Program-made: the position numbers and the translations under genes
In this document: piece after piece, positions 5,922 to 36,780 of the stretch
Position numbering within the stretch: the stretch's first letter is position 1
How the letters are laid out: each line of letters opens with the position of its first letter
The notes under the pieces: model-generated
Told to the model about the DNA's origin: nothing
Databases searched by the model: none
The model's input: only the letters and a program-made list of their open reading frames with translations
DNA from: an uncultured archaeon
GTDB lineage: Archaea > Thermoproteota > Nitrososphaeria > Nitrososphaerales > Gagatemarchaeaceae
Assembly: GCA_963817525.1 (NCBI GenBank)
Contig: CAWFOU010000007.1
Location: forward strand, 64,001-128,000
Direction: 5' to 3'
Length of the DNA stretch: 64,000 nucleotides

Positions 5922-6701
5922 TCATGGTTCCACGATGAAATGAAGCACCGCGGTCTGTCCCCACTCGTCGGCGACTGCCACCGTGTAGACGCCCGGAGTG
6001 AACGGGATTGCGATCGGTGGCGTTGGAGGGGACTGCTGGCCAATGATGGGCTCGTTGAGCTCCTGCGAGTTGTTAAGGAGGTCCCAGTAGCCGTTCGTGG
6101 CAAAGGATAGAGACAAATGGTGCGGACCGAGCGTGAAGTTACCGTCGCTTGCAGGGATGTTCACTCCGGTTAGGTTGGCCATTGAACTGCTCGGTTGGAA
6201 GGTCAGGAGGTTTACGCTGACGCCTTGCGAACACCGGTAGCTGAAGGTGACGTTCGCCGCGCTCTGCAAGTCTTGAGCCGTGTAATTGCCCTTCAGCACG
6301 ACCGCCTCACCAGGAAGGTTGAGGTAGCATGGAGGCCACAGTGCCACCGGGATTCCTTGGAAGTCCCAGTCATTTGAAGTGCGTATGGAGTTGGTCGACG
6401 GGAAGGCGTTGAAGAGCGAGACGCTGGCGTTTAGGCTCTGCCCTACCTTGAGAGTGGTCGCGTTCAAAGCGAGGATCAGGTCGACGCCCGTGCTACCATT
6501 CGAATCTACCTCCATCGCCGCGGCGCCAAGGACGAAGGGCACGGTTACGGTTGATAAGGAGGTCGTGGTGGACGTGCTGACGGAAATCGAGGTCGAAGTG
6601 ATTGTCTCAGCGCCCCTCGCGCTGTTTCCAGAAAGGTAGCCAACGCCGAGGCTCGCCAAAACTAGAAAAGCGATAATCGCCGCGGTGGTCCCCTTCCTCA
6701 T
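5922..6701 (-). CDS. Membrane-anchored extracellular protein (cassette partner)
   Basis: N-terminal TM and S/T linker; paralog of 16128..17240 (LNATT, PG.YT.AV.DEW.QT). Confidence 0.75.
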   Translation of the reverse strand: MRKGTTAAIIAFLVLASLGVGYLSGNSARGAETITSTSISVSTSTTTSLSTVTVPFVLGAAAMEVDSNGSTGVDLILALNATTLKVGQSLNASVSLFNAFPSTNSIRTSNDWDFQGIPVALWPPCYLNLPGEAVVLKGNYTAQDLQSAANVTFSYRCSQGVSVNLLTFQPSSSMANLTGVNIPASDGNFTLGPHHLSLSFATNGYWDLLNNSQELNEPIIGQQSPPTPPIAIPFTPGVYTVAVADEWGQTAVLHFIVEP

Positions 6702-6748
6702 CACTGCTCGTGTGTAAGTTTGCAAGAGGCCCCACTTTACTACACCAG

Positions 6749-7657
6749 TTAAGTACCACAGGCGGTTGAAAAGGTTTCCGAGAAGTCCGAACTTGAATCA
6801 ATGCTACTCGTTGGGGTAATGTTGTCGGTCGAAGTGCCGCTGCACGAATTCTGCATTGTGATTTGGGTTTGGATCATATTGTAGAAGCTACCGCATTGGA
6901 GGGGGTTTTGCAGGGAACTAAGGTAGTAACATTCGTCGTTACCGGAGAGGGTGAGACCGCTACCTGAGTTGAAGGTTGCAAGCGCGGAGCTCGAACCCCC
7001 AACTTCTATGCGTTCCACGAGGGTTTCTGCATAATCGGTAATCGCTGTGCCGGAAGGCGCTGCGGTTGACCCGCTCGAGCAAACCCATCCGGTGCCAGTA
7101 TCTTCGAAGAGGAAGGTCCGATAGTCATTGGAGGAGCCTCCCCAATAGTAACCGTTTTCAACTTCCGCTTGCATCGAATCTCCCGCAGCTAGTGTGTCGG
7201 TGGAGGCACATTGCATTTGGTTTGCCGGATAGAAGTCCCACCATCCGAAATAAGAAGGTGTGGGACAACTCAGCGACGTGCAGTTCATTTCGGCCTCCGT
7301 GCCCGTCTGCGCGAGGAAAGACGCGCTGTTGTTGTATATACCGTTGATGAGTCCGGTCCAAACGCCTACAGTACAATCGTAAGGAGACTGCATACAGTAC
7401 GAGTTGGAAGTAGCTGTGGGCGTCGCAAAGGACATGTCGCTGTAGACTTGGTTGGTTTGGACGCCGCCATACGTTGTATGCACTTGATATCCATCAACGA
7501 TGTGGTCGGTGCCAGAAGAAGCACAGTCGCCCCTGTTCACTTGAACGTTGACTACGTGAGTCAGGCTTGGGTTCTCAAATACCTGAATTCCAACGGAACT
7601 GCCGCAGTTCGAGCTCACGGAATCACGTAGGTAGAAATTCACTGAGACTGCAGTCAT
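6749..7657 (-). pseudogene. Peptidase G1 (glutamic peptidase)-like, 5'-truncated with no signal peptide
   Basis: VWTGL, AQTGT, YFGWWDFYP, GDSM, AETLVE motifs; the homologous frame runs upstream to the TA module. Confidence 0.7.
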
Positions 7658-7729
7658 GCTCAGATCGGAACACGTGGCTGTATTGAACGAATATGACGGG
7701 CCGATTGAAACAAACGAGTAATTTGATAC

Positions 7730-8002
7730 TCATTTGTGTGGGCGGCTGACGATAGACAATCTATTCGCGCTTTCTTTCAGCAACGCTCTGGCGTTGGTGG
7801 GCATCTTTTTCATGTCGTCGCTGTTGAGCTTACCAAGAGCGATTATCTCGAAACCAATTATCTCCCCGCGGCGGTTGCGCTTACCGACGAGATTTTCGGT
7901 GATTGGTTCAGCTTCACTCTCGCTTGACGGATCACCAAGCCAGATGTCGAGGGTGTCGGTGCCTGGGTTATAGTAGAGCGACCTCACTGTTTCTGTTTCC
8001 AT
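7730..8002 (-). CDS. DUF2283-like putative antitoxin
   Basis: YYNPGTDTLDIW...GEIIGFEI pattern. Confidence 0.75.
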   Translation of the reverse strand: METETVRSLYYNPGTDTLDIWLGDPSSESEAEPITENLVGKRNRRGEIIGFEIIALGKLNSDDMKKMPTNARALLKESANRLSIVSRPHK

Positions 8003-8304
8003 ATCGAATCACCGATCATCCTTTTGGTCAAGTAGGCCGTAATAATGAAGCCATCCCCATTTAAGAACTTGACTACGGTGCAGACAAGAAGCTTCGCCTT
8101 GAACTTGCCGTAGTGGAGGTGGACGCTATGATCTCTCTTGCTCCTCCTGACCTCGACTGGTTCGGTCAGCGAGCTCTTGACGAACTCTTCCAGTCCGCGC
8201 ATGGAAGGATGCTTGACGTTCACTATGTAATCCCAGTAGGACTTGTTTATTCTGATTCTCTTCTCAAGCTTCGAAACTACTTCAAAGAGCGGTTCGGAAG
8301 ACAC
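7984..8304 (-). CDS. DUF4258/RelE-fold-like putative toxin
   Basis: W..I..KHP.M, L..P..V, GFIITAY; overlaps the DUF2283 gene. Confidence 0.7.
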   Translation of the reverse strand: MSSEPLFEVVSKLEKRIRINKSYWDYIVNVKHPSMRGLEEFVKSSLTEPVEVRRSKRDHSVHLHYGKFKAKLLVCTVVKFLNGDGFIITAYLTKRMIGDSIWKQKQ

Positions 8305-8354
8305 TGAAATTAAACGGCATCGCGCCTCTAGTTAAGAATAGCCGCAGCTTCTAG

Positions 8355-9760: not shown

Positions 9761-10048
9761 TCAGAGGATGCCGTGTGTAGTGGGCAGTTCGCAACCCAGT
9801 TGAAAGAAAAAGTTAGTTCGTGCAAACCATTGGCCATAGCCATCTGGGCCAAGCAATACGCCGTAGCCAATAATTCCACAGCCTGCGGACCGAAAGATAG
9901 GCGTGGGAACTGAAAGCGGAGGGGCGTTAGGAGTGGTAAACCAGTAAAACACAGGTGCAAAAAAGAAGAGGGCTAACCCCACAAAAAGCGCACAAGCAAG
10001 CAAGACCTGTCTCGAACGGCGCATGAGTGAATAAACATCCCCCTTCAT
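9761..10048 (-). CDS. Small membrane protein (cassette partner)
   Basis: N-terminal TM; directly downstream of 10111..11256. Confidence 0.55.
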   Translation of the reverse strand: MKGDVYSLMRRSRQVLLACALFVGLALFFFAPVFYWFTTPNAPPLSVPTPIFRSAGCGIIGYGVLLGPDGYGQWFARTNFFFQLGCELPTTHGIL

Positions 10049-10110: not shown

Positions 10111-11256
10111 TTACCCCTTGACAACAAGAGGACAATCGTTTCCTTCGCAAACGAAGTTCAGTGAAGGCAAAGTGGCTCCGCTAGTCTGGGTAGTCGAAGC
10201 TCCGGAAAGCCCCCACTCGTTATCGATGTAGTTCTGAATGCCTGAATCGGATCCAAATTGATCGTAATAGCTGTACGAGGTAACGTGATTGTTGTCGGTT
10301 TCATATGTGAGGCCTGAACCATAGGCGTTAGTAGGCACCAACCCTCCTCCTATGTTGAAATTGGTTGTGTCATATGACATGGCATATGTATCTCCGGAGC
10401 TGAACGCATAGGCACTAACGCCCAAGTTCGAGTTATCGCTAAGGAAGTCACCTGCCGAGACGTCTGTGACCTCCATCGCCATTGAAGGGTCAACCGAGTA
10501 GCTTCCTTGATCATACGATACTGCACTCGTTGTGGTCCCAATGCTCGAGATGGAATTCGAACTACAGGACGTGTCAGCTGGATCCAATAACATCTGTGTC
10601 GACGGACTACCATAGGTAGTGACCCCAGACGAGGTGACAACCATCAGATAGGTGAGAGTACCGCTTTCACTCACTATGAACCACCAACCAGTGATGCTAT
10701 TGTGTGTTACATATTCTACTTCATCCGTCACCGACGCGGTCCCGCTACTCACCAAATCCGTGCTCCAGGTGTAGGTAAGGGCTCCTACGGAGGAGGAGCC
10801 GCTGAGCGCTTCAATCAGCGTCACGAATGGAACCGGTTCGTCGTTTGAACTGGAATACTGCACCGCCCCTTGGAAGACAATTCCGGTGATGGTGTATTGA
10901 GTGGAGCTGCAAGTGAGCGTTCCACCTGCGCTGAATGGAGCATTGACCAGAAAATAAGCAAAATAGGTATCCGTCCCCATCGTGTACGACGAAGCTAAAT
11001 CCATCCATGCAGTCCCAACACTCGTTTGACCCGTTGAGGCAAGGGTCCCTATTGCCCAATCGGGGTCTGAACCGGGACATTCTCCATACACACACGACTG
11101 AGGCACTCCTAAACCTCTAGGTGATGTAGGATTTCCTGAGGCCGTAGCATGTGCGCTATCCAGGAATACGGCTGCCGCCGGAGAAGAGACCATCAATACG
11201 AGCAGCACGATCGGCAAGACCTTCGCCAATGTGGAATTCCTCAACAACTTCATCAT
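10111..11256 (-). CDS. Secreted S/T-rich protein, possibly G1/thermopsin-like peptidase fold
   Basis: Signal peptide; FLVNA...VFQG...MAME spacing resembles a Q/E dyad; behind the conserved promoter repeat. Confidence 0.55.
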   Translation of the reverse strand: MMKLLRNSTLAKVLPIVLLVLMVSSPAAAVFLDSAHATASGNPTSPRGLGVPQSCVYGECPGSDPDWAIGTLASTGQTSVGTAWMDLASSYTMGTDTYFAYFLVNAPFSAGGTLTCSSTQYTITGIVFQGAVQYSSSNDEPVPFVTLIEALSGSSSVGALTYTWSTDLVSSGTASVTDEVEYVTHNSITGWWFIVSESGTLTYLMVVTSSGVTTYGSPSTQMLLDPADTSCSSNSISSIGTTTSAVSYDQGSYSVDPSMAMEVTDVSAGDFLSDNSNLGVSAYAFSSGDTYAMSYDTTNFNIGGGLVPTNAYGSGLTYETDNNHVTSYSYYDQFGSDSGIQNYIDNEWGLSGASTTQTSGATLPSLNFVCEGNDCPLVVKG

Positions 11257-11258
11257 TC

Positions 11259-11348
11259 TGTCCAGAAGTCATTTGCTCGGACCTAAAAAGGAAGATTCAC
11301 GACTGATAACACAGTTGAGTAATCAACTGATAACAATGTTCTGTAAAA
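11259..11348 (-). promoter_or_regulatory. Conserved cassette promoter/operator, copy A
   Basis: Hexamers CGACTG/CAGTTG/CAACTG at 11300/11312/11324; minus-strand TTTTTAG TATA-like box ~26 nt before the ATG. Confidence 0.75.
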
Positions 11349-11376
11349 ATCATAGGCAAGCGCATCTACCATCGTC

Positions 11377-11730
11377 CTAGACCTCCCCTGTCTCCCGGTA
11401 TCCCTTCAAAGTATCTTCTATGTACCTGAGTACGACTGGATTTTTACAGGCGAACTTGTAGGTCTTCTACCGTCCATGAACTCTTGTTGTGACCTCGGCT
11501 ACGAGGTGAAGCCGCAGCAACGAATACTCGGGCTCGTATGAGCCTGGTCGGCCGCGAATGACTCCGCTAACTTCACTCGGGTAGAGACGTGTCTTGTGAC
11601 AAATCTCGGAGACAGACAGTGCATCCAAGCTCTTCATGAGAGTCCAGAGCACGAGACGCCGAACCCGGCTTCGCAATGCCACGTTAAGAGAGCGACGATC
11701 GACATTGGCGTCCCGGGAGGTATCAGACAT
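11377..11730 (-). pseudogene. EarA-family winged-helix regulator with in-frame TAG at 11467-11469
   Basis: ALRSRVRRLVL...SEI...PSEVSGVIRG...Y...SLLRLHLV; frame continues KTYKF...GYRETGEV after the stop. Confidence 0.7.
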
Positions 11731-12708: not shown

Positions 12709-13584
12709 CTACGGAGTCACTGTGGTCGTGACGGTGGAGGTTACCGTCGGCTCGCTGTATGTGCAACTGGTCACTGTGATGGTTTGGGTGTAGATGGTCG
12801 AGGTTAATGTTGTCGTTACCGTTGTAGTAGACTGAGCCCCGACAGTAGTTGTGGCAGTGACCGTCAACTCACCACCGGGATAACAGTTAGAGGTCGGAAG
12901 CGCATAAGTCGTTGTAGGCGTGGAAGCCTGCGTCGTGACGGTCGCCGTCGATGTAACGATGTCGACCGTGGGGCCGATCGAGATAGTCGCATTGATCATT
13001 AGGGATCGGCCAAGCTGGTATGTGCCCGTGGGGAAACCGCTTACCGGTTCTATGTACGGCCATATGCTCAAGATGTAACTCTGTCCGACAGTGAGGTTTA
13101 AGGTCGGAATGTTGTCGAGGTCAGGGCCCGTTGACTCTCCGGCTGTATAATTGGCACCGGAGTGGATTTGAAAAGAGTCTGATGCCCAGACCTGTGTGCC
13201 ATTCTTCGAATAGATTACCGGGTTGATGAATGGACCTGCTTGATAGACTAACTGGTCTTGGCCGGAGATATCGGTGAGAGTGGCATTGGCCTCGATTGGC
13301 TCGCCTTTTGGCACCACCGAACTGCCTAGTATCACCGAAAAGTTCCAGTCCCCATCACTCTTGTAGAAGGAAACCCGCCCCGCCGCTGTCGAGTTAGTGC
13401 TCAAAGAAGAGGAAGATGAGGAAGCTGCCGAAGAACCTGTCAAGGAAGATGAAGAAGAGGAAGCGGACGACAGGGGTTGACTCGATGTCGTTGTTGTTGG
13501 GTTCCCAGGGGTGGTCGTGATGGCGAAGACTGCGACAACGGCGAGTATTAGCACCACTGCGATTCCAATCAGTCTCTTGTTCAT
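12709..13584 (-). CDS. Membrane-anchored S/T-rich extracellular protein (cassette partner)
   Basis: N-terminal TM, Ser-rich linker, beta-rich domain, Thr-rich tail. Confidence 0.75.
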   Translation of the reverse strand: MNKRLIGIAVVLILAVVAVFAITTTPGNPTTTTSSQPLSSASSSSSSLTGSSAASSSSSSLSTNSTAAGRVSFYKSDGDWNFSVILGSSVVPKGEPIEANATLTDISGQDQLVYQAGPFINPVIYSKNGTQVWASDSFQIHSGANYTAGESTGPDLDNIPTLNLTVGQSYILSIWPYIEPVSGFPTGTYQLGRSLMINATISIGPTVDIVTSTATVTTQASTPTTTYALPTSNCYPGGELTVTATTTVGAQSTTTVTTTLTSTIYTQTITVTSCTYSEPTVTSTVTTTVTP

Positions 13585-13805: not shown

Positions 13806-15077
13806 TTATGTGCCACAGCTACTCTGCCAGGTCTCGGTGAAATATCCGTGCACTCCGTCGGCTATAACGTCCCCTGGGTAAAGGTCAGCTTCGTTGCATC
13901 CGCTGATATCTATTTCATAACTACCATAATAGTTGTCATTATAGTTTGTATAAATGCTCCAGTTGTCCGGCTCATAAGTAGAGCCAAAGTCGAGATCGGC
14001 GCCATAGAATCCATAGTCGTTGGTGAGTTCAGGCAACACGTTGGAACCGGTCGTTATGTCGAATATCTCAGAATAGTATGCGTCACCCATTCCACTGAAG
14101 GTAGAACCCGAGGTGGAAAAGGGTATGCAAGTTTCTCCCGCTCCGCCGTCTGCAGATGAGTCTGCAATGTCGAAGACATAGCTATCCAGTGAGTTACTGT
14201 TGGAATAATATTTTGCACTGTACACTATCGAGGCCATAGCGTCACCGGACGAAATTGCGTAGTCCCAAGAAAGCCCAGCCCCGCATATGGTTGGAGAGTT
14301 CGACCCGTTGTATAACCAATAGAAGGCTTCATAGGATGATGTGCAACTGCCTCCACTGGTGCAGGAAAGCTCGTCGAGGACGCCGTCCATGGCTGCATCA
14401 TAAGACGGGCCGATGCCGCCCGACTGCGCCGCCGTCTCTTGATACATTTCACAATCCGAGCTCACACAAGCGTTCGATGGACTTGAGGGCTGGGAGATTG
14501 CTTGCGCTGCATATTCAGCAGTAATGTCGAGTACCGGAACGGTGGCCCCAGAATCGTTGTAGAAGTCGTACCCCGAAATTCCAGTCGATGTTGTTATCGC
14601 AGGAGATACTCCCCCATGGAAAGGAGATGGGAGAGGCGGATAGAAGGTTGAACTCTGAACGGATGACAATGTTGGGTTCTCCCCCACGTCAAGCTTGCCC
14701 ACCAATGTGTTACCGTTCATTATGTCGAAAACAAAGTGGACAGATTGAATCGTCGCCTGGCATGTAGTCATTCGGTAGCCGCTATCGAATGTTGCGTTGT
14801 ACTGGGAAGTTAGTGCCCGGAACTCAGAAGCCGACTCCGCCAGTTGGACTCCTGTCGCGAGATCAACACTAGCTTGCGTCGACATGATATCGGACGCAAC
14901 ACGGGCACCACACTCACTCGCCGCGTTAGAATTGGCCCCGGAGTTAGTGTCAGCATGAGCTAGATTCACGCCCGACAATCCTCGCGAGAATACGAGGAGG
15001 GCGAGAACAGCCAGTATGATTCCGGCATTCACGCTAGGCCCTGCTGCATTAAGTCGATTGCGATTGGAGACCATCAT
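13806..15077 (-). CDS. Secreted peptidase G1-like protein with degenerate active site
   Basis: Colinear with 24059 and 35158 paralogs, but AAMDG replaces IVQDG and SEIFDI replaces AEWITE. Confidence 0.65.
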   Translation of the reverse strand: MMVSNRNRLNAAGPSVNAGIILAVLALLVFSRGLSGVNLAHADTNSGANSNAASECGARVASDIMSTQASVDLATGVQLAESASEFRALTSQYNATFDSGYRMTTCQATIQSVHFVFDIMNGNTLVGKLDVGENPTLSSVQSSTFYPPLPSPFHGGVSPAITTSTGISGYDFYNDSGATVPVLDITAEYAAQAISQPSSPSNACVSSDCEMYQETAAQSGGIGPSYDAAMDGVLDELSCTSGGSCTSSYEAFYWLYNGSNSPTICGAGLSWDYAISSGDAMASIVYSAKYYSNSNSLDSYVFDIADSSADGGAGETCIPFSTSGSTFSGMGDAYYSEIFDITTGSNVLPELTNDYGFYGADLDFGSTYEPDNWSIYTNYNDNYYGSYEIDISGCNEADLYPGDVIADGVHGYFTETWQSSCGT

Positions 15078-15107: not shown

Positions 15108-15157
15108 GGCTATATTATCAAGAATCACAACTGTATACACAGCTGCATAATCAGTTG
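15108..15157 (-). promoter_or_regulatory. Diverged cassette promoter/operator, copy F
   Basis: CAACTG/CAGCTG/CAGTTG at 15128/15140/15152 next to AAGAATCA and an AT-rich TATA-like box. Confidence 0.65.
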
Positions 15158-15207
15158 TGGAACGGCGTTTCGGTTCAAAGTCAGTCTCGCATGCATGCAA
15201 GATTTAG

Positions 15208-15562
15208 TTAGCTCTCTCCGACTCTCCGATATCTTTCGAGAACTCCTTTCGATATAATTCAACAGAATCGGGTTCTTGCAGATGAACTTGTACGTCTTCT
15301 GTTGTCTACTGCCTGCGACTTTCGAGATGCTTTCGCTTACGAGCTGAAGTCGAAGCAAGGAGTATTGGGGCTCATACTGACCTTTGACGCCACGAATGAC
15401 ACCAGCCACTTCACTCGGGCTAAGACCTGCGTGGCGGCCAATCTCCGAAATGGATAGAGAGGCTCCACTGTTCTTGAGAGTCGAAAGCACGAGGCGCCGA
15501 ACACGGCTCTGCAGCGCGATACGAAGCAGATCCAGAATTTGCTCCACTTCGCCTGTGCTCAA
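15208..15562 (-). CDS. EarA-family winged-helix regulator (most intact copy; +1 shift near C-terminus)
   Basis: ALQSRVRRLVL...SEIGR...PSEVAGVIRG...YSLLRLQLV; homologous tail EGVLERYRRVGES* lies in another frame, and the ORF as written runs to 15125. Confidence 0.7.
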
Positions 15563-25370: not shown

Positions 25371-25396
25371 ACGGACCAGCGGATCCACCTATCGTC

Positions 25397-26323: not shown

Positions 26324-26381
26324 TAAGGCTCAACCCTTGAGCACTACCGCGTGTTGAGTAATGCTCAACCCTTGAGCATTA
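26324..26381. repeat. Pair of 23-bp palindromes TAATGCTC-N7-GAGCATTA, 35-bp period
   Basis: 26324..26346 and 26359..26381; related pairs at 37406..37463 and 37602..37659. Confidence 0.8.
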
Positions 26382-27321: not shown

Positions 27322-28323
27322 TCATCGGAAGTATTGAACGGGTTGCATTGACACCCCGGGCTGGTTTGAAAGCTGTGGCTTTTGCGAGGCAGGGGCAGCG
27401 GAACCAGAGGTGCACGATCCCGTTATTTGACAGCCTATCGGCAAGGACTGTCCATGGACCTTTCCATGATGTATCTTCCACGGCGCACAGGTCCATGTTA
27501 ATGTTGTCGTGCTTGAACCGGATGATACCGAATAGCATTGTAAATTCGACCCCTCCAATGTGAGATAATTGTTAGGAGTTGTTCCCGCTATCAAGGGGAA
27601 GTAGGTGTTCACGGAGCAATACGAAGGATTTGATTCACACCCTGCTGTCACAACACCAACAACGCCACTACTAGTAAATCCCGTGAGGCTTAGAGTGGTA
27701 CTCGAACTCACAGTAGATGGTGCGAAAGTACTCGTGCACGAATTGCCGTAGCAAAATGGATAAAGCTGGAACCACACCGCAGCTACGTTGTTGAATGTTG
27801 GGTAGGAAACGGTGGGCATTGTCAAATACGTACTAGTGGTGACGTCATAGACGCTTGCGCTCGAGTAGACCACTGTATAGGACGTTCCGCTCCCGCTAAA
27901 TGTGCCTGAGGTGTAGAATTGATACTTGTCGGTATAGCCAGGGGTTCCCGACTGACATTGACTGTAAATCGTTCCGCCCCAATAGACTTCGACTGCCTCA
28001 AGACAGCTATGCGTGTTAGAGGAGTCAAACATGACCACGACCTGAAACAGTGCGCTAGCCAGCTCTTGGTTGTCCTGAAGACTGAAACACCAAGTACCCG
28101 TGGTAGTCTCACAGCATGTACTCGCACAAGTGTACAGCTTTGCGGATGTCGGTGCGGTACTCCACGATATAGTTGACGTCTGGGACCATGAAGACGACGC
28201 GCTTGCCGGAGGAACCTGACTCAATGCTGCTAGAACAGTAGCTAGAACTATCGAGATACCCACGAGGCGCGAATTGTTGCGTGTGCCTCCTAAGGTGAAA
28301 GCTTTCCGTGCACCGGGCATCAT
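27322..28323 (-). CDS. Secreted S/T/C-rich protein, thermopsin/G1-like
   Basis: Signal ending ASA; FSLQDN...FQVVV...LEGSN recalls thermopsin-type SLQLN motifs. Confidence 0.5.
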   Translation of the reverse strand: MMPGARKAFTLGGTRNNSRLVGISIVLATVLAALSQVPPASASSSWSQTSTISWSTAPTSAKLYTCASTCCETTTGTWCFSLQDNQELASALFQVVVMFDSSNTHSCLEAVEVYWGGTIYSQCQSGTPGYTDKYQFYTSGTFSGSGTSYTVVYSSASVYDVTTSTYLTMPTVSYPTFNNVAAVWFQLYPFCYGNSCTSTFAPSTVSSSTTLSLTGFTSSGVVGVVTAGCESNPSYCSVNTYFPLIAGTTPNNYLTLEGSNLQCYSVSSGSSTTTLTWTCAPWKIHHGKVHGQSLPIGCQITGSCTSGSAAPASQKPQLSNQPGVSMQPVQYFR

Positions 28324-28395
28324 TCGCAAGCACCTTCAACGTTCAGTTTGGATATTGCACGGCGAATCATTGTGTCTGGAAGGAATTCGCCCGGA

Positions 28396-28466
28396 AATAA
28401 TAAGGAAGATTCACGACTGATAACACAGTTGAATAATCAACTGATAAGGAACAAGGTTCTGTAAAA
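28396..28466 (-). promoter_or_regulatory. Cassette promoter copy D
   Basis: Hexamers at 28414/28426/28438. Confidence 0.75.
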
Positions 28467-29187
28467 TCTAGGGCGAGTGCATCTACCGTCGTCTGAATCT
28501 CCCCTGTTTCCCGATATCTAGACTATGAGGAGCGAAGGCGCGAGAGAAGGTGGATTGGAGATTTTAATCGGACGTGCTATAACTCGCTCCGATACTCGTC
28601 CTCACGTACCGTTCAGTCGGGAAGGAATGCGAGTTCCGGATGATACGCATGCTGTCAGATGATTCGCGCGCCGTTAAGCAGCTATGAGCGGATGAGGGGT
28701 GTGCGCAAGCAGTCAAGAGTCTGGCGAGCGCCAGAGGCCGAGCCAAGGACTTGGGAGGCAAAGACCGGTCAAAAAAAAATAATGAGAGAGGATGAGAGAA
28801 TATCCGCAACGGAGCGTGGTAATCTTTGGATCCCGCGAACTGCCGCCAAAGTTTCTTCTAGGCGCCTCAAGAGAGATGTAGGCAGAGATCAGCCGCCAAC
28901 AATCCGGCTCGGTGTTTTCACGGCTTGCGATGTACACTCGTTAGTGGACATGGGCAAGTTCGCTTACCATTATTTTTGTTTCATTTCGGTTTGGGACTTG
29001 GTCAACTTCTCCTCTTTACCCTGTACACGTAGCTGCAGGGCTATTAGCCCACGATGGGCCCACGATGGCGTCCGCTCGCGCCGAACCTTCAAATGCCGTC
29101 CTAAAATAGAGAGAAAGATAGAATACAGTATCGAAGGCGCGGCGAGTATTTAACACGGGCTAGGCACGTTGCCCTCTGGGGACGGAC

Positions 29188-29751: not shown

Positions 29752-30547
29752 TCAGGACTTCAGCTCGGCGATAGCCCTGGAGACCTCTGTTTGCCCGACA
29801 CCGAGATTCCGCGAAACTGCCGCGTAGTCATCGGCGGTGAAAAAGGACACGACGTCGTTGGCTCTTCCTTGGCCGATCATGGCAGACGCTCCTCTCTTCA
29901 GGTCGCTGACTTCTGAATCGGAGTGCCACAGAAGCCCGTAGATGTCCGCGATGTCCTTTAGCCGCTTGTGCTCCTTGTCCCTGTTTGAGACGGAGTTGAG
30001 CTTGGTCGCCAGCAGCACCTCGGGCTTGGGCAGGATGAGCTTCGCGCCGAATTCCTCCACCGTGACGTGCCTCTTCCCGTCGAAGACCTCCGAGAGCAGG
30101 GGCTCGTCGATCGGCACGAACCCGAGGACCTCCTTGGCGCGAGGATGTATCTTATCGACGATCGGGTCGATGTACATGTCGAAGATGAAGGACTGGTTCA
30201 CCTTCTTTGCCTTCCCTTCCGACAGCTCCTTCTTCGTCTCGGTGTCGACGTGCTTGACAAACTGAAAGCTGATGGGCTCGAAGCCCACGTCGCCGATTCT
30301 CTTGATGGTCTGCGCGAACACAGAGCTCCTGAGCTCCGAATCGGTCCATCGTGGATCTATGTGAAAGCCGAGGTCGATGTCCCGAGAGCCGATGAAATTC
30401 CTACCCTGCGAAGCGCTGAAGTTCTTGTTCACATTGATTTAGACCGCCCATTCCCCCTAGAAGGCATATCTGGCCTCCCAGCTCCCTGAGGACGGTGGAG
30501 AGCTGCGACCGGGAGACCTCTACCTCATAATCCTGGTAGAGAGACAT
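29752..30547 (-). pseudogene. AbiEii-like nucleotidyltransferase toxin, disrupted
   Basis: LLGG/WAV motif broken by a +1 shift and TAA; GSRDIDL, LLATKL, KDIAD retained. Confidence 0.7.
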
Positions 30548-31142
30548 TCTTCGACTCCTTGTCCATCAGCATCTCGGCCGCTTCCACGCACACCCCGCCT
30601 TCGCTGAGCAGGTCAACTATCAACTGAGGCATAGAGACGATTTTAAGACCACCCCTATCGAAGGAGCGGTAGAAGACCTGCTCGTCTCCGATCAGCACCC
30701 GCGTGTTCCCCTTCCCCACCAGGCCCTCCTTCGAAAGCAAGCTGTGCCACTTCGGCAGCTCCTCCGGCTTGATGTAAAAGTCGACCCTCGAGGGGAAGAG
30801 GTAGTTCTGGACGCGATTCTCTGCCTGATAGGTCGTGAGCGCGTAGCCCAGGCTTGTCTTGTTGAGCACGTCGAGCGGCTTCCTCAGCATGTACTCCCTC
30901 CTGTTTGGTTCCAGCCGCCACTTTTGCCACAGCGCCATCAGTTTCTTGTAGTCCTTCACCTTCGTTCCCTGCAGCATGCCACCGCGTTCCAGGTTTCTCA
31001 GGAGTTCGTGTACCCATGGGTACGCTCCCAGGGATTCTTTGGCTATCCTGTACTTCGACAGGGTTCCGGAAGGATTGTTCAGCAGTATCCGGAGTACCCT
31101 CTCTCTGATCGTCCCTCTTCTCTCAGGCATCCGACCAACCAA
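30525..31142 (-). CDS. AbiEi-like antitoxin/transcriptional regulator
   Basis: N-terminal HTH; C-terminal IVSMPQLIVDLL...G...EAAE; overlaps the NTase gene. Confidence 0.75.
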   Translation of the reverse strand: MVGRMPERRGTIRERVLRILLNNPSGTLSKYRIAKESLGAYPWVHELLRNLERGGMLQGTKVKDYKKLMALWQKWRLEPNRREYMLRKPLDVLNKTSLGYALTTYQAENRVQNYLFPSRVDFYIKPEELPKWHSLLSKEGLVGKGNTRVLIGDEQVFYRSFDRGGLKIVSMPQLIVDLLSEGGVCVEAAEMLMDKESKNVSLPGL

Positions 31143-31346: not shown

Positions 31347-31747
31347 GGATTCGCGGAGATGTGGACAAATGCTGTCCACAATTCTGGACAAGAGTTATGG
31401 ACAGATGCCGTCCATAAGTCCAAACAAGAGTTATGGCCCAATGCGGGCCATAACTTTGCCAGGTTGCGATCCTTCTTCATGGTCTTTTTCACTTCAGGGC
31501 CGATGGTGTGCTTTCCCCGCGTCAGGCCGACGTGCCGGGCAGTCTCGCTGACCCTGCGATACATCCCACCGATGCCATACTTTCCGTACCAGGTCGACGA
31601 TCAGCTTCACGGGACGCCTTACCCCCGTTGACGCAGACGGAGTTCTCCGGCTTGTCGATTACCCCCATCTCCTCGTGGACGCACTTCGTCCTGAGATCTG
31701 CCATCTCGAAGTGCGGCCTCAGCGTCGTGAACGGGAAGTCGGCCTCA
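31347..31747. repeat. ~400-bp duplicated segment, copy 1, with three 36-bp palindromic units and a decayed minus-strand gene
   Basis: Palindromes TTATGG(A/C)C-N7-G(T/G)CCA(T/C)AA at 31359, 31395, 31431; homologous to 36895..37329. Confidence 0.8.
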
Positions 31748-31827
31748 GCGACTAAAGCGACCCCTTGCTGCTCAGACAGATTCCGACTGGGTGTGGACGA
31801 CCTGCGGCGAGGTCGCCAGAGGATAGG

Positions 31828-33054
31828 CTAGGGTGCACCGCAGCCCACGTCAACCAGCGTCGCGTTCACGTTGCCCGTGGCCTGCACGTCGTGGAGGGCG
31901 AGCAGGTCTCCAGAGGCCGAGACGTAGAGCTCGCCCGCGTTGGCGTCGTACCCCGCGAAACTCGGCATGCTGGAGAAAGAGTACATGTTCAGCAGGGTGC
32001 CCGTCGCCCCTTCGTAGACAAGCAGGTAGTTGTAGTTCGTCGGGACCATAACCACCTGATCTAACGAGGGGATGACGGCAATGCTGGACGGCCCGCAAGT
32101 CTCCGGATAAACCCTGAATATCACGTTCCCGTTCGTCCCGTTTACGGCTACGAGCTGCGACCCTCCAGTGACGTAGACGATGTCCGTCGACGGGTTCATG
32201 GTCATCGGCCCGTAGATTGGAGAGTCAAGGTCGACCGTGGTCACGAGGGAGCCGCTACTCCCGTTGATGATTGCGAGGTACTGGGAACCGCAGACATCGG
32301 CCGTCGCCTCCACACAGCCGTCCGCGTATACCATGCCGGTGTAGGGGTCGACCGCGACCTCGAAGGGGTTGAATACAAGCGGGATGCTCTCGACGGCCGA
32401 CCCGGTCGAGACGTTGACCCCGATCACGCTGCCATTCACCGGCCCCCAGAGGACGTGCGTGCTCGAGTCGAGCGCCATCCCACTGGTCTCTCCGCAAGTA
32501 AAGTCGTTGGACGCAATGATTCCGAGGCTCAGGGTGACCTCTCCCGTGACAGCATCCGTGGAGCCGCTGACCGCGACGATTTCCCCCGCCAGATTGTCCC
32601 CCGGGAGGACGGCCGGGAGGATGGCGTAGACCATGCCCGTCGAGTCGTCGACGGCCAGGTCGTAGCAGTAGCCCGCCGGGGTGCGAGGAAGGGAGACGTT
32701 TGCGACCACGACGTTGGAGGAAGCGTTGATCACGGTCAACGAGTCGTTCAGTGAGTAGGCCCCCGGGACAGGCCAGCCGAGGGCGTAGATCCTGCTGGCG
32801 TTAGCGTCGACAGCCACGATGGGGCCGCCTGCTCCTCCCAGCGAGATGTTGGCGGCCTCGACGTCCGCTGCCTGAATCGGCTGGCCTGTGCCCGCCGTGG
32901 AGGTAGATACGGAGGTGACCGTCTTCGCGATCGTCGTGGTTGAGGTGACTGTCCGCGTCTCGGTCTGGTCGACGCCGCTCCCCGCTAGGTACCCGGCACC
33001 GAGGCTCGCAATCACGAGAATCGCAATCACGGCCGCGAGGGATGCCGTCGGCAT
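31828..33054 (-). CDS. Membrane-anchored YVTN/YncE-like beta-propeller protein (cassette partner)
   Basis: Repeated AVD...G.VY and VIN.S...V blades; anchor IA.LV.ASLG.GYL shared with 5922..6701. Confidence 0.8.
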   Translation of the reverse strand: MPTASLAAVIAILVIASLGAGYLAGSGVDQTETRTVTSTTTIAKTVTSVSTSTAGTGQPIQAADVEAANISLGGAGGPIVAVDANASRIYALGWPVPGAYSLNDSLTVINASSNVVVANVSLPRTPAGYCYDLAVDDSTGMVYAILPAVLPGDNLAGEIVAVSGSTDAVTGEVTLSLGIIASNDFTCGETSGMALDSSTHVLWGPVNGSVIGVNVSTGSAVESIPLVFNPFEVAVDPYTGMVYADGCVEATADVCGSQYLAIINGSSGSLVTTVDLDSPIYGPMTMNPSTDIVYVTGGSQLVAVNGTNGNVIFRVYPETCGPSSIAVIPSLDQVVMVPTNYNYLLVYEGATGTLLNMYSFSSMPSFAGYDANAGELYVSASGDLLALHDVQATGNVNATLVDVGCGAP

Positions 33055-33309
33055 TTCCACTCGAAAGCGCAAAGGAGCGTGGTACCTATTCAACTCTGTG
33101 GTAGAATGTTCTCAAAGCAGTGTTAGTCCACCTGTCCGAACTTCACGACACCCCATCAACGAGTTCCTCGTTACTTACCGTGCTAGGACAGGAAGAGTCC
33201 CTGGCTTCCAGTTGCTGCACGCAACGAGAACAGCAAATCGGCTGTGCCACTTACGCTGCACGAAGAAAATGAGAAGCCCCTCAAACAAAAGGAAAACTTG
33301 ATTTTTTGT

Positions 33310-33794
33310 CTAACTCATCGCGATGGAGGTGGAGGCGCAAGTTCCTGCGTAGCAAGAGTAAGTTGAATAACCTATCGTTGAAGTCGGAGAGGTTCCAGTT
33401 CCGCCAGCTTGCCACCAAGTTTGATATCCCAGTTGGTAGCTGCCGCTGGTACCTTCGCCGACTTCGTCAGTGAAAGTGGTAATACCAGGGAAGTAGCTCG
33501 AGGAGGTAGTACCACTGTGACCTTCATTCGCTGTCAGGGCGTAGGTCAAGGAATTATAGGATATGTCCTGGGTGTAAAACGCCGTGAAAGTTACACAACA
33601 ACCTGATCCTGAAATATTAGAATCTTGGGCGTAAAGAGTCCAATAGCTGCAGCTGCTACAATAATTGATGCTAAAGTACACGGAATCACCCACGCTTATG
33701 CCGGGAAGTTCGTTGCCGCAGAATTGCGTATGGCAAGTCCCAGAACCCGCCGCATCCTCCACGAACAGAATTGGGTTCTTTGAGTTGGTGCATA
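33310..33794 (-). pseudogene. C-terminal fragment of a G1-peptidase-like protein
   Basis: SVGDSVYFSI, W.LYAQD, YALTANE; 5' part replaced by the neighbouring cassette. Confidence 0.55.
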
Positions 33795-35078
33795 TTAACC
33801 GACTATAGATGAGCACGAGCCAGCGTTAGTCTGCAACTGTCCGGCCACGCTCACGGGAAGATAGGAGGTGCTGACCACAGTGTTGCCCACGATTATCCCC
33901 ACGTCCATCGCGGTGTAGGTTGCGATAGGCCCCGAGATTAAGACGGAGAAGGTGTAGTTGGCAGACGAATAGGGACTCATCTGGAGGGTCGGGGAGTCGA
34001 ACTCTAGGTAGCCGATGGGCAACTCATTGAAGCTCGTGTCCTTTTCTTCTGAGTCGGCCGTTTGGTTATTGGGGGCCCATGAGCACTCATTGCCCGCGGA
34101 GTCCGGCACCAGCTCCGGGTTTCCCGCGAACACACGGACCACGTTGCTATTGTTTGCGGGTGACCCGAGCGTGACGGGATGGCTGAAGCTCTGGACGTGT
34201 ATCCTGAAGGTGATGTTCTCCTGGCCGCCGGATGTTGGGAAGCTGGACACCGAGATGTCACTCACGTTCTCGGTGGGGTTGAAAATTCTCCCGCTCCGCA
34301 GGTAGGCTACGCTCGCGCCGGTGTAACCAATAATCTGGCCTTCCAGCGGACCAGTATTACACTCGGGAAGTCCGAACGCATAGTTCGGAAAGTCTGAAGA
34401 GTTGACCTGAGAGGGTAAGTAACCAATTGCGACAGGAATTGCTGTGCATCCAAACGAGTAAGAAGGCCCTAGCCATAGCCCATCGAACCCGGTCGAGTTC
34501 TCACCGGTCGACACCTTGTACTGGATGACTGTAGTTTGACCTGCGGAAAGAGAGATGTTCCCAGGGGAGGCGCTCCCGCTAACGTTGTTGGCAGGCGGTT
34601 GCGGACCCGGAAAGTCAGATGGCCATGAGAACCAGGACGAGCCGAGGGGCGTTGAAATGCTTTGGTTGTAAAAGGGCATGTCAACGAACTGCAGACAGAG
34701 GTCAATGGTCGACCCGGTGCCTACAACAAAGGCAGGCTCTGCGCTTTCGGTGATCTGGGTGCCGTTCGCGAGCGTAGTCACGTTGCTGGGCGGAACCCGA
34801 TATGGCTGGTCGCACGGCGAGGGTGAGATGGTCGACGAGGATTGGCTCGTGCTAGTCGAATGGTCTACGTCGGTCGAAGAACTTGAACTGGTTGAATTCG
34901 TGCTTGAAACAGGAGTAGTGGTACTCGCAGATGTAATAGAGACCTGCGGGTGGTACGACACAGCGAATATGCCGACGGCTAATAGAATCGCTATGACGGC
35001 CGAGACCAGCGGAACCCCGAGACGAGATCCGATGCGACTACTTGTTCTCAATACCAACGACAATTGCCTTGTCCTCAT
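33795..35078 (-). CDS. Membrane-anchored extracellular protein (cassette partner)
   Basis: Paralog of 23109..23990 with an extra C-terminal domain; start placed at MRTRQ. Confidence 0.75.
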   Translation of the reverse strand: MRTRQLSLVLRTSSRIGSRLGVPLVSAVIAILLAVGIFAVSYHPQVSITSASTTTPVSSTNSTSSSSSTDVDHSTSTSQSSSTISPSPCDQPYRVPPSNVTTLANGTQITESAEPAFVVGTGSTIDLCLQFVDMPFYNQSISTPLGSSWFSWPSDFPGPQPPANNVSGSASPGNISLSAGQTTVIQYKVSTGENSTGFDGLWLGPSYSFGCTAIPVAIGYLPSQVNSSDFPNYAFGLPECNTGPLEGQIIGYTGASVAYLRSGRIFNPTENVSDISVSSFPTSGGQENITFRIHVQSFSHPVTLGSPANNSNVVRVFAGNPELVPDSAGNECSWAPNNQTADSEEKDTSFNELPIGYLEFDSPTLQMSPYSSANYTFSVLISGPIATYTAMDVGIIVGNTVVSTSYLPVSVAGQLQTNAGSCSSIVG

Positions 35079-35157
35079 AAATGGGTTTTTATTCGAACCA
35101 CCCCTACTGTCGTGCGCAGCCCGCACTTCGTCAGATTGACGCACCTTTGTAGTGGCC

Positions 35158-36411
35158 TTACGTGCAGGGTGCAGGTGTATGCGAACTCGTTTGGAAATGG
35201 TTCTTGAAGTCGCCGCTTGATAACATACTGCTGGTGGCAATGTTCTGGAGAAAATTATCGCAAACACATGGATAAGAGCAGCTAGTGCCGCTCTCAAAAT
35301 AGAACAAGTAGGAATACCCAGTTAGCTGGTAGGCCGCATAAGGAGAGATATTGGTAGCGGTGGAAGCATTTTCGAAGGCCTGGTCAGTGAATGAAACTGT
35401 TCCAAACGTCGCCAGCGGTTGGGTTCCCGGATTGGAGGGGTAATTGGGAAGTTCGGTTATCCATTCAGCCCAAGTTGGAGCCGTCATTGCAGAGAAAGAA
35501 ATATCACCAACATAGCAACTCTCATCGCTGTTAGAGAGGTCCTCGATGAAGGCGGTATAAGTCGAGTCACTACCCCCGTTGTAGTAATTGTTGAGGACAT
35601 AGGCGTATATGTCGTCACCTGTGGAAATAGTGATGTATCCGCCATCGGTGGTTGTACAGTTATGGTAGGAGCCCCCAGTCCCAACTGTTTCATACCATGC
35701 GAAATATTTTGATGTACAGCCGCTTCCATTGCAATCGGCCGTCGTCCCGTCCTGCGCGATGTCGTTGGTGCTTTCGCCGTTATCAGCCAATCCGGTCCAG
35801 GTACTTACATAGCAACGGCCAGAGTTACACCCAGTACCTGGGTATCCAGCGCTTGACTGGTTGTATTCTATGTAGGTAGCGTAAGTGTGAATCGTACCAC
35901 GGGAACTGGGACTCGCGCTATATCCCGCGTAGCGTGGGTTATCGTAGGTAGTCGGTGAATTCACTACGCGATTGGGCTGCACTGATGAACCCAATACCGA
36001 GAGGTTCTTTGATTCGGATATTACTAGACTATCTACTATCGAACCTGTGCTGTTGTGCAATACGAATACAACGTTGTAGCTTTCGATGTCTTCTTGGCAG
36101 GAAGAGGTTCCCTTGGCAATCTGGAATATGCTGTTGAAGGTTGGCTGGTAGTAAGAAGCGACCCCTGTTGAATACAAACTCGAGGCCTTCGCGTTTGCGA
36201 TTGCGGTCGTTTGGTTCATACCGTCATAAGCTTGGGCGATAGCAGACGCGCATGTATCTGCAGGTGGCGAAATAGAGCTAGTTGAGGCCGCGTTCCCTTT
36301 GGAGTCACTTGAAGCAGCGTTCACTACTGACACGGCGCTAGATGCCGCTAGCAGGCACATCATTGCAAAGATGCTTGCGACCTCCAGTTTGGATATAGCC
36401 CGGCGCATCAT
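35158..36411 (-). CDS. Secreted peptidase G1 (glutamic peptidase)-like
   Basis: STWTGL, IAQDGT, YFAWYE, GDDI, AEWITE; MMRRAISK N-terminus. Confidence 0.8.
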   Translation of the reverse strand: MMRRAISKLEVASIFAMMCLLAASSAVSVVNAASSDSKGNAASTSSISPPADTCASAIAQAYDGMNQTTAIANAKASSLYSTGVASYYQPTFNSIFQIAKGTSSCQEDIESYNVVFVLHNSTGSIVDSLVISESKNLSVLGSSVQPNRVVNSPTTYDNPRYAGYSASPSSRGTIHTYATYIEYNQSSAGYPGTGCNSGRCYVSTWTGLADNGESTNDIAQDGTTADCNGSGCTSKYFAWYETVGTGGSYHNCTTTDGGYITISTGDDIYAYVLNNYYNGGSDSTYTAFIEDLSNSDESCYVGDISFSAMTAPTWAEWITELPNYPSNPGTQPLATFGTVSFTDQAFENASTATNISPYAAYQLTGYSYLFYFESGTSCSYPCVCDNFLQNIATSSMLSSGDFKNHFQTSSHTPAPCT

Positions 36412-36413
36412 TC

Positions 36414-36504
36414 TGTCCAGAAGCAATTGGCTCGGACCTAAAAAGGAAGATTCACGACTGATAACTCAACTAGATTATCAACTGCTAGCAACAATGTTCT
36501 GTAA
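36414..36504 (-). promoter_or_regulatory. Cassette promoter copy E
   Basis: Hexamers at 36455/36467/36479. Confidence 0.75.
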
Positions 36505-36533
36505 GGTCGTCGGCAAGGGCATCAGCTATCGTC

Positions 36534-36780
36534 CTAGACCTCCCCTGTCTCCCGGTATCCCTTCAAAGTATCTTCTATGTACCTGAGCAGGATCGGGTCG
36601 CTACATGTGAACTTGTAGGTCTTCTGTCTTCGATCTCCATGAATTTTTGTTGTGACCTCGACTACGAGGTGAAGCCGCAGCAAGGAATACTCGGGCTCGT
36701 ATGAGCCTGGTCGGCCGCGAATGACTCCAATGACTTCGCTTGGGTAGAGACGCGTCTTGTGACAAATCTCGGAGATCAGT
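36534..36780 (-). pseudogene. EarA-family regulator remnant (5'-truncated, frameshifted)
   Basis: Nucleotide similarity to 11377..11615. Confidence 0.7.

Follow-up and report, generated by a model that had tools for sequence, protein, structure and literature searches.

An island-borne EarA-family regulator and promoter module precede glutamic-peptidase-like and unrelated secreted-protein genes in a Nitrososphaerota-type archaeon

The window analyzed here, the whole 64,000-nucleotide stretch, corresponds to C7:64001-128000 of genome G000, from a high-GC archaeon of Nitrososphaerota type (assembly of 2.82 Mb in 15 contigs, 95% complete, 8.75% contamination) and carries a variable genomic island of ~35-37 kb with an integrase. 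Within the island, minus-strand genes for secreted proteins are followed by genes for membrane-anchored partners, and several are preceded by a gene of the EarA family and a shared promoter module. An initial annotation had read this region as an array of about nine cassettes, each with an EarA-like activator, a secreted peptidase of family G1 (eqolisins) and an anchored partner. All 18 open reading frames (ORFs) that it named exist on the minus strand, positions included, and the architecture does recur, but the module marks six units, not nine. We refer to ORFs by their first coordinate and to genomes, contigs and comparison loci by the letters G, C, and L.

Four copies of the EarA-family gene lie in the island:

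15125-15562, minus strand: EarA-family gene, the sole uninterrupted copy (34.6 bits), running ~30 codons beyond the usual stop
11380-11730, minus strand: EarA-family gene with one in-frame TAG (11467-11469), leaving ORF 11467-11730
25400-25753, minus strand: EarA-family gene with one in-frame TGA (25493-25495), leaving ORF 25493-25753
36537-36788, minus strand: EarA-family remnant without its 5' end, covering residues 36-119 of the L021 homologue; the first 35 codons are missing

By sequence, the regulator belongs to the Pfam EarA family (PF07381), as had been proposed. Three ORFs (11467-11730, 15125-15562, and 25493-25753) score 34.6-34.9 bits against a cut-off of 22, with MarR as the next best family (E 0.0057) and other helix-turn-helix families far lower; a fourth match, at 36606-36806, reaches 29.4 bits. 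A whole-genome search places all four above-cut-off EarA matches of the genome in the island, and four of the six units have an EarA-family gene or remnant upstream. We aligned the copies to intact 115-133-aa homologues of relatives, with tblastn alongside. The TAG and TGA of the 11380 and 25400 copies lie two codons apart, and the C-terminal coding sequence beyond them is conserved (82-84% identity over 119 residues); these stops could be recent independent inactivations, sites of read-through, or assembly errors.

EarA is defined by function as an archaellum regulator and, as described in the available text of PMC5512572 and PMC10665913, binds immediately upstream of the B recognition element (BRE) of the archaellum promoter, where it is thought to recruit TFB. 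In this genome the neighboring genes encode secreted proteins, and a search for archaellin (PF01917) returned none although four control archaea scored in the same search. An EarA-like regulator serving non-archaellum genes is therefore plausible. The earlier idea of a repurposed EarA stands to that extent, but not as a working co-regulated system in this genome, where three of the four regulators are broken.

A repeat-family search located a 98-nt module directly upstream of five secreted-protein genes (10111, 22374, 24059, 27322, and 35158), and a degenerate copy precedes a sixth:

25283-25380, minus strand: promoter module, best-preserved copy, upstream of 24059
11263-11360, 22943-23040, 28377-28474, and 36418-36515, minus strand: further module copies
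around 15139-15157, minus strand: degenerate module copy, preceding 13806

The five copies show 66-96% ungapped identity to the reference copy, and operator plus module are 96-100% identical in three copies. The module core combines an inverted repeat, CAGTTGA-N4-TCAACTG, with a pair of TTATCAG repeats and, ~35 nt ahead of the ATG, a TTTTTA box; candidate operator sites end 9-22 nt upstream of that box. The 40-nt core has no further occurrence in the genome with up to 10 mismatches allowed. A 19-nt pattern, CARYTGA-N5-YRRYTGW, occurs six times in the window against 0.06 sites expected by chance and eight times in the 2.82-Mb genome, six of the eight being the island units; since these sites themselves supplied the pattern, the counts speak for its specificity and not for a discovery. 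Because module sites lie only at six secreted-protein genes, the array comprises six units. The earlier claim that most cassettes share a promoter and an upstream EarA-like gene thus holds for the module at six genes and for EarA at four, but not at 6749, 18121, or 33310, which have no operator-pattern site upstream. Just upstream of the 18121 start, a 12-nt unit (ATAGCTGTGAAT) is repeated 3.8 times with a 96% match (window 19626-19670) and may serve another regulator as a binding array.

The shared sequence extends into the signal-peptide coding region in four units: 22374, 24059, 35158, and the remnant before 27322. In the 27322 unit a stop codon closes the signal-peptide sequence at 16 codons, and the gene behind it is a different one. 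Between the 10111 and 24059 units the regulators are 85% identical and the module cores identical, but similarity ends at the start codon and the cargo is unrelated. Since the module is shared while the cargo of the 10111 and 27322 units is unrelated, the module has been joined to unrelated cargo: a portable unit of an EarA-family gene plus a ~100-nt promoter module has been copied and recombined before different secreted-protein genes.

Five of the nine secreted ORFs are related to G1 peptidases, of which at most two (24059 and 35158) look intact and catalytically complete:

24059-25276, minus strand: secreted G1 (eqolisin)-like protein, intact, with a signal peptide, a ~100-aa N-terminal domain, a catalytic domain at ~148-395, and Gln210 plus Glu312
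35158-36426, minus strand: secreted G1-like protein, intact, 53% identical to 24059; likely start at the methionine of MMRRAISK at 36411; dyad kept
13806-15077, minus strand: secreted G1-like paralogue (BLAST to 24059, E 3.8e-12) with Met at the catalytic Gln and W-x-G lost
6749-7657, minus strand: G1-like gene without its 5' end (BLAST E 1.4e-7), no signal peptide, dyad retained
22019-22937, minus strand: frameshifted gene formed by ORFs 22374-22937 and 22019-22486, of a remote G1-like sister family

The initial annotation had regarded all nine as secreted G1 peptidases; five keep a G1 link and four show none that could be detected. We scanned ten secreted-protein ORFs against Pfam with hmmscan (E up to 1). 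Peptidase_A4 (PF01828) was listed for 24059 (24.7 bits; cut-off 22.3) and for none of the other ORFs, and no thermopsin match appeared among the ten, so the thermopsin relation that had been entertained finds no support. In a six-frame search of the genome with Peptidase_A4, 35158 reached 43.9 bits and 24059 reached 26.9 bits. Two further members, 6749, which starts at about position 104 of the family profile, and 13806, join the family only through BLAST and a family hidden Markov model (HMM).

An AlphaFold2 (AF2) model of 24059, built from an 18-row alignment, has a predicted local distance difference test score (pLDDT) of 74. In this model residues 148-395 superpose on scytalidoglutamic peptidase (SGP; 2ifw) with Z 24.3 and a root-mean-square deviation of 2.1 Å over 197 of 206 residues (VIA-align), and Foldseek retrieves 2ifr at E 7.6e-9. 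Other comparisons rank lower: aspergilloglutamic peptidase at Z 18.9, neprosin at Z 13.8-15.7, and lectins and glucanases at Z 13 or less. The predicted structure of 24059, the one protein for which the fold was compared, thus has the eqolisin fold, a sandwich of two seven-stranded antiparallel sheets; residues ~44-147 of the model form an extra domain of helices and sheet. Searches of PDB by sequence, with 24059 alone or with the family profile, retrieved no eqolisin, and only the fold search linked them.

The dyad Gln53/Glu136 (SGP numbering), strictly conserved in the G1 family according to the available text of PMC3009609 and PMC6154417, maps onto Gln210/Glu312 of 24059 by way of the canonical protein L033:5788-6978 aligned to 1s2b. 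In an 18-sequence family alignment the dyad columns are at least 90% conserved, and 35158 and 6749 keep both residues. Among the residues whose roles are given in the available text of PMC6154417 (G41, D43, G44, G55, W67, and E69), equivalents of G41, G55, W67, and E69 are present in the family, the last two within an A-W-Y-E motif. The proposed G1 fold and Gln/Glu dyad are borne out for 24059 and 35158 by Pfam, the model, and dyad mapping. The G1-like proteins are also acidic, with 1-3% Lys/Arg, as expected for acid-stable secreted proteins. In 13806, whose catalytic Gln is replaced, the sequence suggests that the protein is probably not a peptidase.

ORFs 22374 and 22019 are one gene: in tblastn, an intact 311-aa L022 protein matches through residues 1-180 in frame -3 and 183-311 in frame -1, placing the frameshift near 22408-22419. 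The L022 protein has 57 relatives among 1.84 billion representatives. A 38-row alignment of this family contains one invariant Gln and one invariant Glu, and two of the 38 members match Pfam Peptidase_A4 (best 4.1e-7). With hhalign, the family profile matches the canonical G1 proteins of the genome at a probability of 91.3% (E 9.7e-7), and that alignment puts the Gln, and of the two residues only the Gln, on its catalytic counterpart; the corresponding probability for the G1-like family of the island itself is only 4.8%. A 96.7% hhalign probability obtained with 22374 alone against the island family was set aside as leaning on the shared signal peptide. On the sequence evidence of the profile match to canonical G1 proteins and the two Pfam hits, we class the 22374 type as a remote G1 sister family.

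Classical G1 genes occur elsewhere in the genome. Two lie 13-17 kb upstream of the window (C7:46702-48237 and C7:49788-50978, in locus L033 = G000:C7:44001-64000) and others at C10:1618-3180, C14:182-1372, and C7:1060955-1062031, all with 88-123 Pfam bits, long Ser/Thr linkers, and C-terminal domains. C7:49788-50978 and C14:182-1372 encode the same protein sequence, and C10:1618-3180 nearly duplicates C7:46702-48237; such copies may be products of the assembly. The whole genome holds 12 Pfam-level G1 matches plus the remote sister family.

The remaining four secreted-protein genes of the array are:

10111-11256, minus strand: secreted, predicted beta-strand-rich, family not recognized; behind the shared promoter and an EarA-like gene
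27322-28329, minus strand: secreted Cys/Ser/Thr-rich protein, family not recognized; behind the shared promoter, with a 16-codon signal-peptide remnant ahead
18121-19584, minus strand: secreted, family not recognized, no shared promoter; followed by a membrane-bound winged-helix gene (17413-17826)
33310-33816, minus strand: 168-aa ORF without signal peptide or shared promoter, which may be a gene fragment

Across the secreted-protein ORFs, Ser plus Thr make up 19-32% of residues and Lys plus Arg 1-5%, with 4-14 Cys, many N-x-S/T sites, and Ser/Thr linkers. The description of these proteins as secreted and S/T/C-rich therefore holds for composition, but 6749, 22019, and 33310 have no N-terminal hydrophobic segment. 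For 10111, the AF2 model (10-row alignment) has a pLDDT of 41, too poor to count for or against a G1 fold; Foldseek with this poor model gave nothing at E up to 0.001, and the ESM Atlas gave no usable match. Nine homologues of 10111 were found, two of them named Nitrososphaerota/Thaumarchaeota archaeon by source, and there is one homologue in the 22 genomes of the genus; 27322 has none in the same 22 genomes.

Each of the nine secreted-protein genes is followed by a gene for an anchored partner:

5922-6725, minus strand: anchored, family a (more than 25 paralogues across the genome), downstream of 6749
9761-10048, minus strand: 95-aa single-pass membrane protein, downstream of 10111
12709-13584, minus strand: anchored, Ser/Thr-rich, downstream of 13806
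16128-17240, minus strand: anchored, family a, downstream of the membrane-bound winged-helix gene 17413-17826
20875-21678, minus strand: anchored, with two copies of a Cys-bounded mini-domain, downstream of 22019
23109-23990, minus strand: anchored, family b, 42% identical to the 33795 product (E 3.5e-48), downstream of 24059
26783-27193, minus strand: 136-aa protein with hydrophobic segments at both ends, downstream of 27322
31828-33093, minus strand: 421-aa anchored protein, downstream of 33310
33795-35297, minus strand: anchored, family b with an extra C-terminal domain, downstream of 35158

All nine partners carry a hydrophobic segment at the N-terminus (in most with a Ser/Thr-rich linker behind it), which bears out the proposed anchoring, but they form at least seven unrelated sequence families, not one, and Pfam recognizes no family for any of the nine. 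The type-specific linkage of secreted to anchored protein is real for two families. Of 18 related loci, with flanks of only ~1.5 kb covered, five (L004, L005, L008, L015, and L034) have a family-a gene immediately behind a 6749-type gene, as the window does, and L007 and L024 have one separated from it by a membrane-bound regulator. Family b lies behind the 24059-type gene at each of its two places in the window, and metagenome loci L057 and L058 show the same order.

Three further observations concern the partner families. A Cys-bounded module (C..VPsGS.V..P.G..C) occurs at the N-terminus of 22374-type proteins and twice in the 20875-21678 product, and also alone in several short database proteins (hits only to residues 30-90, with L022:5005-5940 the protein involved). 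A winged-helix regulator with two C-terminal membrane helices (17413-17826, minus strand) recurrently adjoins a family-a gene (16128-17240, minus strand); further such pairs are C7:604063-604401 with 603188-603940, C1:354374-355072 with 355201-356343, and L024:3979-4323 with 2980-3810. Membrane-bound transcription factor plus surface protein looks like a recurrent pair, recalling membrane-bound archaeal regulators such as those described in the available text of PMC6396743. As to what family a might be, a language-model search (ESM Atlas) led to a BsuPI cluster with a score of 0.81, below the trust level; Pfam did not bear this out, 17 family-a members matching neither BsuPI nor any other inhibitor family at E up to 1, and the family-a profile found nothing in PDB.

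The linkage that the initial annotation had predicted in other genomes was found. EarA-family matches with E up to 0.001 occur in 7 of 61 related genomes, six above the Pfam cut-off, and the G1-like family occurs in 11 of the 61, including 9 of the 22 within the genus. Outside this genome, all six in-genus EarA-like genes are followed by a same-strand secreted-protein gene. The cargo is G1-like in L024, L025, and L026, of the sister family in L022 and L023, and unassigned in L021, where it carries the same signal peptide; Pfam scores above the cut-off were obtained for both G1-like genes of L024 (43.3 and 38.8 bits) and for the one of L026 (33.2 bits). The operator pattern lies between regulator and cargo in three of these six loci (L021, L022, and L025). 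Three metagenome loci (L056-L058), probably representing one population, carry in order an intact 118-aa regulator, a near-copy of the module core, a 24059-like gene (67% identity, dyad present), and a 23109-like gene (54%); the near-copy in L056 and L057 does not fit the 19-nt pattern exactly.

The array sits in DNA inserted between two conserved genes:

2020-39275, no strand assigned: inserted variable region, flanked by a conserved gene (1433-2017, plus strand) and folE2 (39276-40082, plus strand)
about 3950 to 39260: low guanine-plus-cytosine (GC) part of the insertion, by GC profile
37972-39228, minus strand: tyrosine recombinase (integrase) at the right island end (Pfam Phage_integrase, 37 bits; cut-off 27.1)
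3972-4003, plus strand: left copy of an imperfect 32-nt direct repeat, 81% identical to 39219-39250
39219-39250, plus strand: right copy of this boundary repeat, overlapping the integrase start codon
8440-9114, plus strand: transposase with an IS240-type DDE domain (Pfam DDE_Tnp_IS240, 43.7 bits)

Comparison of loci L037-L040 defines the insertion. The site is empty in G006 (L040), where nothing separates the homologues of 1433-2017 and folE2; at the same site G009 carries 1.6 kb with an integrase fragment, G012 8.8 kb, and G017 9.9 kb, the DNA in the last two being unrelated. The region ~2020-39275 is therefore an insertion at what is a hot spot in the genus. GC content is 0.50-0.58 over ~4-38 kb, with one 2-kb bin at 0.60, against 0.57-0.67 in the rest of the window. 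The proposal of a mobile island thus finds support in the integrase, the low GC, and the empty site. The repeat pair, whose wider alignment (3900-4080 against 39150-39330) is 72% identical per column, may be a candidate attachment-site remnant and could mark the integrase-linked part. A gene pair at 7730-8304 and the transposase occupy the place of the lost 5' end of 6749.

We favor an interpretation in which an island-borne expression unit, an EarA-family regulator with its operator, drives divergent secreted G1 peptidases together with anchored proteins and has partly decayed in this genome; we place this just on the probable side. The original and most frequent cargo is the divergent G1/eqolisin branch. 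By analogy with EarA just upstream of the archaellum-promoter BRE, the EarA-like protein would bind the CAGTTGA-N4-TCAACTG and TTATCAG sites 9-22 nt upstream of the TTTTTA box and help recruit TFB/TBP. All operator-bearing units would be switched together, possibly in trans by 15125. The 24059 and 35158 peptidases would be exported, undergo maturation at low pH, and break down external protein into peptides for uptake, with the anchored protein in an accessory role at the cell surface. Regulator binding and activation, acid peptidase activity, and assistance by the anchored proteins are all three steps that we infer.

Several observations weigh against this interpretation. Three of the four local regulator copies are interrupted or truncated, none being a complete ORF of the usual length, so regulation here may be lost. 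The operator pattern is not present as written in three of the six relatives' loci (L023, L024, and L026). With regard to the cargo, 10111, 18121, 27322, and 33310 showed no G1 link in family HMMs, single-sequence hhalign, or profile-profile comparison with homologue alignments; the catalytic Gln is missing from 13806; for 35158, Peptidase_A4 came up in the six-frame search but not in hmmscan of the protein; equivalents of D43/G44 of the classical W-V-G-I-D-G motif (available text of PMC6154417) are replaced across the subfamily; and the same beta-sandwich occurs in lectins and glycanases (Z 10-13). Assembly consensus errors could mimic the 22374/22019 frameshift. Finally, the partners are heterogeneous, and members of the largest family, a, are scattered over the genome, for the most part at a distance from peptidase genes.

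So many single lesions point to an array in decay in this genome or, alternatively, to errors in the assembly. Decay could go further than the favored interpretation allows: the array may be a relic of decayed cassettes and a non-working system, with at most two intact peptidases expressed from a regulator-independent promoter. Its case rests on the TAG and TGA stops in two regulator copies and the missing 5' end of a third, on the 22374/22019 frameshift, the 5' loss of 6749 next to an insertion-sequence transposase, and the Gln-to-Met change in 13806, and on the remnant upstream ORF before 27322 and duplicated segments with broken small ORFs, all while intact versions of the same units exist elsewhere (L022 and L056). 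The available text of PMC5512572 adds that in Methanococcus the need for EarA can be bypassed by a promoter change. We nevertheless think a dead array unlikely. The uninterrupted 15125 could act in trans on all six operators, operator and module remain 96-100% identical in three copies, and 24059 and 35158 are intact together with their partners; the coding sequence beyond the stops in two regulators is more than 80% conserved, so the lesions are recent or could be assembly errors.

Still less probable, in our judgment, is that the cargo consists of variable surface or secreted binding proteins (lectin-like or adhesive non-enzymes) swapped behind a constant promoter and signal peptide. Such swapping would fit the same promoter, and in four units the same signal peptide, before unrelated mature proteins, as well as the four of nine secreted ORFs that are not G1-like and the many N-x-S/T sites and Ser/Thr linkers. 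The fold is common to lectins and galectins, and 13806, without its Gln and otherwise intact, stands behind the sole uninterrupted regulator. What tells against binders is that the dyad and A-W-Y-E are kept by 90% or more of 18 aligned members and by the remote sister family as well; a conserved dyad is not expected of a pure binder, and the eqolisin match at Z 24 is far above that of any lectin (Z 13 or less).

We consider it very unlikely that protease and protector form pairs in which an anchored inhibitor or shield guards the producer's surface, an effector-immunity-like arrangement with arms-race polymorphism, even though types co-vary (24059 with 23109 and 35158 with 33795, the same two families recurring in L057 and L058), family a directly follows the 6749 type in 5 of 18 loci (~1.5-kb flanks) plus the window, the 22374-type protein shares a mini-domain with its neighbor 20875, the island is mobile and patchily distributed, and family a has its weak, below-trust BsuPI lead (0.81), because 0 of 17 family-a members match an inhibitor family in Pfam (E up to 1), the more than 25 family-a paralogues are mostly away from peptidases and often beside a membrane-bound regulator, the partner families are mutually unrelated, and the island holds no toxin-like delivery machinery. 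Complex prediction for the L034 secreted and family-a proteins gave a median score of 0.10, "no answer", and is evidence in neither direction. Equally slim is the chance of the combined form, in which a portable EarA/operator cassette, often with the signal peptide, carries peptidase plus surface-anchored protector pairs as a polymorphic effector-immunity-like system directed at neighbors' surface proteins or serving competition for protein substrates.

Under the favored interpretation of an EarA-type expression unit with divergent peptidase cargo, the parts are known and the combination is new: a mobile island on which a relocated EarA-type switch governs a divergent branch of eqolisins. The 24059-type proteins resemble eqolisins (MEROPS G1: SGP, 2IFW/1S2B; aspergilloglutamic peptidase, 1Y43; Alicyclobacillus pepG1) in predicted fold, aligned Gln/Glu dyad, A-W-Y-E and A-E-W-I-x-E motifs, secretion, acidic Lys/Arg-poor composition, and multi-copy paralogy in acid-habitat organisms (available text of PMC6154417). 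They differ in having only 17-24% identity to solved members, a ~100-aa N-terminal domain where classical members have a short propeptide, extra Cys pairs, and no D43/G44 equivalents; their peptidase activity is a prediction. The neprosin (G3) zymogen shares the beta-sandwich superfold (Z 13.8-15.7) and a glutamic-class site, and its large N-terminal prodomain is a possible functional analogue of the island N-terminal domain; neprosin is, however, a plant enzyme with only 10-12% identity, and the alignment starts at model residue 147, leaving the N-terminal domains unmatched.

On the regulatory side, the likeness to EarA of Methanococcus maripaludis and Pyrococcus furiosus comprises the PF07381 match, the winged-helix type, a length of ~115-133 aa when intact, and candidate sites just upstream of the TATA/BRE region of the following gene (compare the available text of PMC5512572 and PMC10665913). 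In contrast to those euryarchaeal systems, the host is of Nitrososphaerota type without archaellin, the neighbors are secreted peptidase-like genes, the candidate operator consists of 7-bp inverted plus direct repeats where EarA is described with four 6-bp sites, and the gene is multi-copy on a mobile island with most copies broken here.

Thermopsin (A5) and sedolisin (S53) are reported as secreted enzymes of acid-soil Thaumarchaeota, Gagatemarchaeaceae, in the available text of PMC10640624. The island proteins share with them a presumed role in low-pH extracellular protein digestion by non-ammonia-oxidizing Nitrososphaerota with high-GC genomes of 2-3 Mb, but the folds are unrelated, and no A5 or S53 Pfam match appeared among the ten ORFs. 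A search for AmoA found none in this genome; it was run without a positive control and is hence uninformative. The available main text of PMC10640624 makes no mention of glutamic peptidases, and literature searches returned no paper that connects EarA-family regulators with peptidases or Nitrososphaerota with eqolisins; the supplementary tables of PMC10640624 and 10.1101/2025.10.01.679748 could list G1 genes. Archaeal G1 homologues are already known from databases as uncharacterized proteins (available text of PMC3009609 and PMC6154417). The statement that such a system had not been described agrees with these searches for the system, the homologues themselves being in print.

If the favored interpretation is true, the EarA family is not restricted to euryarchaeal archaellum control, and Nitrososphaerota possess a mobile switch for secreted hydrolases, a simple regulator-operator pair, open to testing, in a phylum for which few transcription factors are known. 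Non-ammonia-oxidizing soil members would hold a large, divergent set of glutamic peptidases that standard annotation largely misses, with a bearing on protein feeding in acid soils. A promoter and signal-peptide module on unrelated cargo would represent a clear case of cassette exchange in archaeal secreted-protein genes, and 24059, 35158, and the intact L056 and L022 relatives would be candidate acid-stable proteases.

The island itself resembles archaeal integrative elements in its terminal integrase, lower GC, imperfect direct repeats, toxin-antitoxin and insertion-sequence cargo, and hot-spot location. It differs from them in that no replication, conjugation, or virion genes were recognized and in that the repeats share only 81% identity and adjoin no tRNA gene; it appears to be an old element that no longer moves. 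Its other contents include a PIN/MazE toxin-antitoxin pair at 4222-4929 and a DUF2283 gene recognized by Pfam. An ABC-transporter gene (2874-3836) and folE2 are neighbors in no relative checked.

Further observations concern the island's repeats and smaller genes. A weak AbiEii-type nucleotidyltransferase match (29752-30432, minus strand; 17.7 bits, below cut-off) has a 205-aa basic protein upstream (30525-31142, minus strand), and by sequence the two may form a type IV toxin-antitoxin pair. A duplicated segment of ~400-480 nt, 82-88% identical, lies at 31356-31755 and 36870-37337; it contains only broken small ORFs and 36-nt tandem repeats with an internal palindrome (2.3 copies at 31362-31444 and 3.5 copies at 36904-37029) that look iteron-like. 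The repeated segments 19992-20138 and 25842-25988 encode protein fragments (ORFs 20042-20761 and 25892-26326, both plus strand) that have seven longer paralogues elsewhere in the genome and match nothing in Pfam; possibly they are what is left of a mobile element that bounded the cassettes. Outside the island, an Rfam scan of the window gave a tRNA at 135-221 as its sole match. ARAGORN identifies it as tRNA-Gly(CCC) at 133-221 on the minus strand, 1.8 kb away from the island border; at 89 nt it is longer than usual and may contain an intron.

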